Assembly (NCBI RefSeq): GCF_057098645.1 | Contig: NZ_CM169472.1 | Reading direction: 5' to 3' (one strand) | DNA: 64,000 bases | In this document: one piece after another, positions 4,764-5,522 of the stretch | Position numbering within the stretch: the first letter of the stretch is position 1 | Layout: every line of letters begins with the position of its first letter | Made by a program: the position numbers and the translations under genes | Notes under the pieces: model-generated | Seen by the model: only the letters and a program-made list of their open reading frames with translations | What the model was told of the DNA's origin: nothing | Database searches by the model: none

Positions 4764-5522
4764 TATATATATCTATTAGCTGTTTCCCGGACATAAGCTA
4801 CAGCCAGCACTAACCTGGAACGGGTGCATTATAAAAAGGAACAAGGGACAAATAGCTGAACAGTAACCGCGTTAGTCTCTTCCCGCATAACCGTACCATT
4901 CGTATTAAGAAGTATTGCCCATATCCATTCGGCGAAAGAGGATCTGCCATACATCAAGTCCGTTTTACTTGGCATCAGATCATCGCCGTCATTAACTCTG
5001 TTAAAGTCGGACAAACGATTAGCAAGATCTGTGATTCAAAAGTGCTTAGCGCTAAGGTGGGACTGGTTACAGATTCATTAACCCTGTTCTTTGTCGCACC
5101 TATCGATCGGTGTAATGCCACAACAGGTTTATGTTAATCAGAACAATGCGCCCCTCTATAAAGAGAATTCTTTGATAAGGCAACTTGAAAAGGGAAAGCT
5201 AACTGATATCAATGTACCACTTTAGTAATCATCACATTATATACAGGCCAAAATAAGTTTCCTGAAAGCCAGTATCTCTAAATCAATCATTAATGATATA
5301 TTTTATCGTCACAATAAAAATTATCTAAATTCTATTACTTATGTAAATAAGCACAACCTTTTCATAGACACAAAAACTATGGCTGACGCATCACTTGCAA
5401 TCAATTATCCATCATTAGATTAATATTTTCACTTATTTTTCAGAAGGTAAAAATAACTTTACTATGCGTTTAAAACACCCGCTATAAATATCTTGTATAT
5501 TATTGACACTATATGATGCTAT

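Follow-up and report, generated by a model that had tools for sequence, protein, structure and literature searches.

A putative IS3-family remnant and a candidate espG promoter in the ler–espG spacer of an O157:H7 LEE

The segment at positions 4764–5522 of the window, i.e., of the whole 64,000-nucleotide stretch of DNA analyzed here, is likely to comprise decayed IS3-family debris in dispensable junction DNA (4764 to ~5285), followed by the AT-rich promoter region of espG (~5285–5573), and is not expected to harbor a gene. Between ler and espG, this was the last stretch left without annotation, and an ancient IS3-family scar and the espG promoter would together partly explain it.

Location and composition of the ler–espG spacer

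Positions 4600–5600 were found to be 99.8% identical to O157:H7 chromosomes, and the window represents an O157:H7 LEE. The ler gene occupies 3889–4260/4278 on the minus strand, the RefSeq espG gene extends from 5574 to 6719, and rorf1 (6847–7665) is located downstream of espG, while no feature is annotated by RefSeq across the 1.3-kb spacer that separates ler from espG. The initial annotation had correctly placed the segment between an ERIC element on its left and espG on its right, although its right limit, 5522, presupposes a long espG ORF starting at ATG 5523. The non-coding stretch in fact reaches 5573, because the RefSeq start of espG is at 5574 and, in L045 and L047, two metagenome- or genome-derived lineages, stop codons interrupt the 17-codon extension from ATG 5523. 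An RBS, AGGAG, is present at 5561–5565, 8 nt ahead of ATG 5574. Position 5574 is probably the true start, and the 398-aa espG call is probably wrong. This longer ORF, beginning at ATG 5523, is picked by some gene callers (P0001, P0003) and overlaps the predicted promoter described below.

The GC fraction was determined to be 0.41–0.45 over about 4600 to 5200, as compared to 0.235–0.285 at 4300–4600 and 0.24–0.29 in the LEE1 promoter region, while 5200–5522 exhibits a promoter-like value of 0.265–0.29. The earlier description of the segment as less AT-rich than its flanks holds for the left 60% (about 4600–5200), but does not extend to 5200–5522, which is AT-rich in the manner of promoter DNA.

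On the left, the segment is bordered by an ERIC-type repeat (4640–4763), assigned through an Rfam match to V_AS5 that, at 36.6 bits, remains under the gathering score; the fold z-score over this repeat is -2.9. The ERIC-containing part of the query (42–172) matches 5,425 of 5,426 E. coli genomes, with copies numbering in the thousands. The O157, EPEC and O111:H8 types carry the repeat, L045 has lost part of it, and the O111:H11-type LEE is without it. From the LEE1 block to about 4790, the O157-type and O111:H11-type spacers are essentially unalignable (4572–4803 versus L002 2345–2474, with about 58% identity), a mismatch that goes beyond whether ERIC is there or not. Moreover, 22 nt (ATATATCTCCCCCTCTTTTC-like) that are common to L045, L047 and the O111:H11 type are missing from O157.

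The spacer block between ERIC and the IS tip (4764–4872) is, according to the alignments, common to E. coli LEE lineages, one small motif within it, GTATAAAAAGGAACAAG at 4829–4845, being conserved. A second spacer block (5046–5285), of moderate GC content, is found in E. coli-type LEEs only, being absent from C. rodentium. For these two blocks, representing about 350 nt, no match besides LEE copies was obtained among E. coli genomes, plasmids and phages. They most likely constitute more unrecognizable debris at a recombination seam, while a weak, lineage-specific regulatory function of either block represents a minority possibility.

A putative IS3-family remnant at 4873 to ~5045

A sensitive blastn search of 4772–5522 against 5,426 complete E. 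coli genomes (28 Gb) returned a 148-nt match covering 4881–5028, with 72–75% identity and a best E value of 9e-13, the best match displaying 74% identity over 148–151 nt. The loci concerned, distributed over hundreds of records from E. coli and plasmids, are annotated as ‘IS3 family transposase’, and 4881–5028 was the sole interval, besides LEE copies, to be matched by blastn in the plasmid and phage collections. At the annotated loci, the match takes in the 71 nt that precede the transposase ATG and extends into the first 26 codons, in the orientation of the window plus strand; it represents the tip-proximal 71–79 nt of the IS together with the start of orfA. When an intact, 1,207-bp IS copy from plasmid pCFSAN004180G (L010 1793–2999) was employed as an nhmmer query, 4880–5029 was retrieved with an E value of 4.8e-17, and a tblastn search with OrfA residues 1–28 matched 4949–5032 at 54% identity (E value of 1e-8).

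The start codon of orfA has been altered from ATG to ATA at 4949–4951, and the conceptual remnant peptide, IHQVRFTWHQIIAVINSVKVGQTISKIC, aligns to MRKARFTEHQIIAVIKSVEAGRTVKDVC. The sole Pfam match of this conceptual orfA peptide was to HTH_Tnp_1 (PF01527), at 13 bits versus a cut-off of 24.1 bits; the reference OrfA scores 98 bits against the same family. The parent IS, whose OrfA begins MRKARFTEHQIIAVIKSVEAGRTVKD, follows a pattern that we take to resemble that of the IS407 group, and degenerate copies of it are found next to clbA in the pks island (L003).

The termini of IS3-family elements are inverted repeats that start with 5'-TG and end with CA-3'. The window reads TAGTCTCT at ~4873, where the reference IS tip reads TGTAAGTA, and a recognizable TG terminus is not retained in the window copy. 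The L047 lineage, whose EspG is about 67% identical, has kept the TG tip (TGCAAATATCCCGC versus TGTAAGTATCCCGC), while its orfA can be followed to about codon 35, which puts the tip at ~4873 and sets the limit of traceable homology at ~5045. In the decayed left end (4873–5045, plus strand), the inverted repeat region is followed by a leader that includes the RBS region and then by about the first 28–35 codons of orfA.

In intact IS3-family elements, orfB specifies the DDE (rve) transposase domain and is expressed by -1 frameshifting. Neither orfB, nor a frameshift region, nor a right inverted repeat was detected in the spacer by tblastn of OrfB or nhmmer of the whole IS with filters off, and nothing was retrieved beyond ~5050. 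Furthermore, the orfA remnant of the O111:H11 type contains an in-frame stop. As judged from its sequence, the 4873 to ~5045 interval is a truncated relic of an IS3-family element rather than a working element, and is predicted to encode nothing and to be incapable of transposition.

A remnant extending through the whole of orfA, which would account for the GC-richer sequence up to about 5200, was also considered. In a frameshift-aware alignment with OrfA residues 29–88, residues 63–88 were collinear with 5122–5201, but the similarity was weak and not significant, with 16% of shuffles scoring equally well or better, and an extension of orfA by means of a stitched peptide left the Pfam score unimproved. 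The 5046–5285 block may represent further degenerate orfA, although not demonstrably so. No description of an IS remnant in this spacer was found in the literature searched.

The 61-aa minus-strand ORF

The initial annotation had reported a minus-strand ORF of 61 aa at 4829–5014 that belongs to no recognizable family, and both statements were confirmed: the ORF is present, with a TTG start, and Pfam returned no family above threshold for it or for three other small ORFs. It is positioned antisense to the IS remnant, i.e., to a decayed transposase gene. ORFs of at least 61 aa occur in 33% of mononucleotide shuffles of the segment, for which the median longest ORF is 54 aa. The frame is, moreover, poorly kept among LEE lineages, as a 1-nt indel generates a frameshifted C-terminus in EPEC E2348/69, and two in-frame stops and frameshifts are present in the O111:H11-type LEE. 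The 61-aa ORF and four other small ORFs are without an exact match in a collection of 15 billion proteins, and RefSeq leaves the 61-aa ORF unannotated.

That this ORF, or another small ORF in the segment, specifies a real small protein would be consistent with the frame being open in O157 and with a locus tag that was placed between ler and espG in older annotations (Z5141, E2348C_3969), in which a numbering gap is visible. The literature searched for Z5141, ECs4589 and E2348C_3969 yielded nothing of relevance. Such a protein is nevertheless considered extremely improbable in light of the TTG start, the frequency of equal or longer ORFs in shuffled sequence, the interruptions in other lineages, the lack of family, protein match and RefSeq annotation, and the antisense position. 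The 61-aa frame is consequently best regarded, on sequence grounds, as a chance ORF and not a gene. The suggestion that the segment might be the remnant of an older gene proved apt in another sense, in that what survives, at 4873 to ~5045 on the plus strand, is an IS3-family orfA 5' end together with the IS end upstream of it, and not the minus-strand ORF.

Age and divergence of the scar

A comparison with the EPEC, EHEC and C. rodentium LEEs had been proposed in the initial annotation, to which a lack of conservation across LEE variants would have been adverse. EPEC was found to possess the segment, as were other LEE types of E. coli, while C. rodentium is devoid of about 4560–5285. The scar and the ATG-to-ATA change occur in four divergent lineages of the E. 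coli LEE, namely O157/EPEC E2348/69, the O111:H11/O26-like type, L045 and L047, and the scar is therefore older than their split.

Within the segment, O157 and EPEC E2348/69 are about 99% identical. Between O157 and the O111:H11 type, identity values of 0.78–0.875 were obtained for the spacer blocks and 0.839 for the IS remnant, as compared to 0.83–0.89 at four-fold degenerate sites of espG, rorf1, ler, escE, cesAB and orf4, a comparison that involves mainly one lineage pair and short blocks and that has low power for small constrained sites. These values suggest that the spacer drifts at the neutral rate, there being no sign of purifying selection at the modest power afforded. The presence of the segment across E. 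coli LEE types looks like shared ancestry without constraint.

Lineage breakpoints within the spacer

The interval between the LEE1 (ler) block and espG-rorf1 is interrupted at different positions in different lineages. In O111:H8-type and related strains, a degenerate IS2 is located at 5097/5098, the identical LEE–IS2 junction being present in 73 complete E. coli genomes. Beyond this junction, integrative-element debris and then the cadCBA backbone are encountered, and not espG-rorf1 (L005 4327–5700, L006, L044); a rearrangement of espG/rorf1 in O111 has been reported (PMC10982417). In Escherichia sp. MOD1-EC7003, the left end of an IS3-like element, in reverse complement, abuts the equivalent of position 4897 (L029 1–63, at the contig start), and a younger IS has therefore inserted within the old IS scar. 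In L035 (1–27), whose EspG is 68% identical, an IS1 terminus, CACTATCAATAAGTTGGAGTCATTACC, lies about 235 nt upstream of espG, at a point corresponding to about 5320, while about 125 nt (about 5058–5183) are deleted in L047.

The LEE of C. rodentium was reached stepwise by exact-protein look-ups along the island (L041 3032–5700, L040/L041 upstream of ler, L036 16738–18400, L031 1–330). An exact 17-mer from the remnant, searched against genome contigs, yielded 18 chance matches and one relevant Escherichia contig, and missed both C. rodentium and E. albertii. In C. rodentium, espG-rorf1 is located beside espF, at the LEE's other end, in agreement with the relocation of rorf1/espG described for this species (PMC5073101). 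On the ler side, homology ends at 4558, where an IS66-family element begins (equivalent to 4558–4580), about 350 nt upstream of ler. On the espG side, homology resumes from about 5285 and is adjoined by an IS3-family element, ~480 nt upstream of espG, that is flanked by three ~41-bp tandem repeats. Since only the blocks up to ~4560 and from ~5285 onwards are held in common, 4580–5285 is lineage-specific, dispensable junction DNA.

Several further observations were made in the course of these comparisons. A short C-terminal fragment of an IS3-like OrfA (MSTEIACFKRQLAKRDKELTILRS) is present upstream of espG in C. rodentium, and a Transposase_mut (IS256-family) fragment is located between eae and escD in the LEE of this species (L037 6177–6413, L038 15813–16049). 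In several E. coli Ler variants of 131–137 aa (P0011–P0013, P0015, P0016), a unit of 8 residues within the N-terminal coiled-coil region is duplicated in tandem and in frame (AKRLREQE AKRLREQE); one such duplicated variant is present on 28 contigs, while P0017 (121 aa) is devoid of the AKRLREQE unit. Ler-like proteins of the H-NS family, about 62% identical to Ler (P0022 cluster, P0055–P0068), were detected in S. enterica subsp. salamae, C. freundii and C. braakii; a LEE variant without espG has been described in S. salamae (PMC3408504), which fits the Ler-like proteins found there.

The same breakpoints bear on the notion that the spacer acts as distal regulatory DNA, with 5184–5290 or the small motifs binding Ler, H-NS or another LEE regulator, or with the GC-richer part insulating the divergent, H-NS-silenced promoters of LEE1 and LEE6 from one another, and that it thereby has a share in the control of ler or espG. 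The interval is indeed situated between two divergent, Ler/H-NS-controlled units, espG and rorf1 being activated by Ler (PMC3891560). Furthermore, the short motifs at 4829–4845, 5187–5215 and 5219–5245 have survived well in L047, distant as this lineage is, and 5201–5290 is the best conserved block between O157 and the O111:H11 type (0.875). However, the LEE of C. rodentium is fully functional without about 4560–5285, and 73 pathogenic E. coli genomes lack, beside ler, all of the sequence right of 5097. Divergence is within the synonymous range, and no experimental report of such regulation was found in the literature searched, all of which renders a distal regulatory role unlikely.

The espG upstream block and its candidate promoter

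The AT-rich block upstream of espG-rorf1 (LEE6), at 5285–5573 on the plus strand, has a GC fraction of 0.27–0.29 and occurs in every lineage, that of C. rodentium among them. Within it lies the non-coding element with the strongest conservation in the spacer, the motif ATTATTGACACTATAT (5498–5514), which includes TTGACA and is invariant in O157, EPEC, the O111:H11 type, L045, L047, L035 and C. rodentium. A promoter scan identified a sigma-70-like site consisting of TTGACA (5503–5508), a 16-nt spacer and GATACT (5525–5530), with 10 of 12 positions matching; no other strong site of the sigma-70 type faces espG on the plus strand of the spacer. A tandem 10-bp repeat, CTATATGATG/CTATATGATA, follows ATTATTGACACTATAT at 5509–5528. 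The candidate espG promoter is thereby placed 44–71 nt upstream of ATG 5574, and the ATTATTGACACTATAT/TTGACA site likely represents the core promoter or an operator of espG (LEE6). Expression of espG and rorf1 is activated by Ler, that of espG 5- to 12-fold in microarrays (PMC3891560), and no mapping of the espG promoter or transcription start was found in the literature searched.

If the site is indeed the LEE6 promoter, we infer a leader of about 37 nt and not one of several hundred. The proposal that the segment forms a long espG 5' UTR is unsupported, the only conserved promoter-like site facing espG being that located 44–71 nt upstream of the ATG. Nor could the proposal that it holds an sRNA be substantiated: divergence is at the synonymous level, scans revealed no terminator-like site on either strand of 4280–5700 and no plus-strand promoter-like site between 4489 and 5502, and Rfam returned no match in the segment, its sole match being the sub-threshold, ERIC-like one outside it. 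Sliding-window fold z-scores ranged from -1.9 to +2.5 across 4700–5599.

A non-coding transcript, be it an sRNA or a long espG leader, might nonetheless begin within the IS remnant or close to it, an old promoter of the IS end being one possible source. The remnant is oriented towards espG, and the left ends of IS3-family elements normally carry the orfA promoter. Unconventional RNAs are also known elsewhere in the LEE, namely Arl, which is antisense to ler, and sRNA350, in the 3' UTR of cesF (PMC5030294). Against this stand the negative promoter, terminator and Rfam results, a folding energy not better than that of shuffles, the interruption of the interval by IS insertions and deletions in several lineages, and the fact that the known LEE sRNAs map elsewhere, which together leave such a transcript only a slim chance.

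Discussion

The preferred reading, that of IS debris followed by the espG promoter region, suggests the following course of events. An IS3-family element would have inserted, oriented towards espG, before the E. coli LEE lineages split. Its start codon would subsequently have disappeared, as would all sequence past about codon 35, orfB and the right end among it, the remnant having since drifted at the neutral rate. The higher G+C content of the remnant would account for the segment being less AT-rich than the flanking promoters. The interval appears to have been entered or truncated repeatedly by other mobile elements, the LEE core and espG-rorf1 having been joined or separated there. On this basis, 4764 to ~5285 would act as a passive spacer and rearrangement-tolerant zone between the LEE1 (ler) block and espG-rorf1 (LEE6), while ~5285–5573 would constitute the promoter/regulatory region of espG, with its core promoter 44–71 nt upstream of ATG 5574.

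The scar as such is unremarkable, a relic of a familiar type of element that had escaped annotation, and carries small weight for biology at large. For annotation, the 61-codon ORF should stay unannotated, while about 4560–5285 may be viewed as a variable seam between the LEE core and espG-rorf1, as seen in the E. coli types, O111:H8 and C. rodentium. The interval is probably a neutral site for insertions, and 5285–5573 would be the piece to use in studies of the espG promoter. It is conceivable, though very doubtful, that E. coli-type LEEs have co-opted the GC-richer IS scar and the motifs at 4829–4845 and 5187–5245, be it as a boundary or insulator, as a distal module that binds regulators and keeps the spreading of H-NS/Ler at the LEE1 promoter uncoupled from that at the divergent espG promoter, or as the source of an unrecognized transcript; such co-option would represent a lineage-specific layer of LEE control that is absent from C. 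rodentium.

Comparison with known systems

Arl and sRNA350 belong to the same island as the segment, but both map to other positions, and 4764–5522 is without a promoter–terminator pair, structure or constraint. The neighboring ERIC repeat is comparable to the scar in that it is a second small mobile or repetitive element that settled in the same spacer and whose presence varies by lineage; it differs in being a structured, palindromic repeat with thousands of copies, while 4764–5522 has neither such structure nor such copy number.

The intact IS3-family copy of pCFSAN004180G (1,207 bp) exhibits the same order of parts as the window remnant, from the terminal region through the leader and the RBS region into orfA codons 1–28. 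In contrast, about 170 of the 1,207 bp survive in the window, where the start codon is mutated and where the frameshift site, the DDE orfB, the right inverted repeat and a detectable target-site duplication are all lacking. IS debris is likewise found at the borders of the island, as in the flanks of the C. rodentium LEE and in the IS3-family pseudogene beside espF/selC in EPEC E2348/69, and shares with the scar its position at a module junction. The window scar, which has no RefSeq annotation, is distinguished from such border debris by being internal to a conventional E. coli LEE and by being far more decayed than the flanking IS copies.
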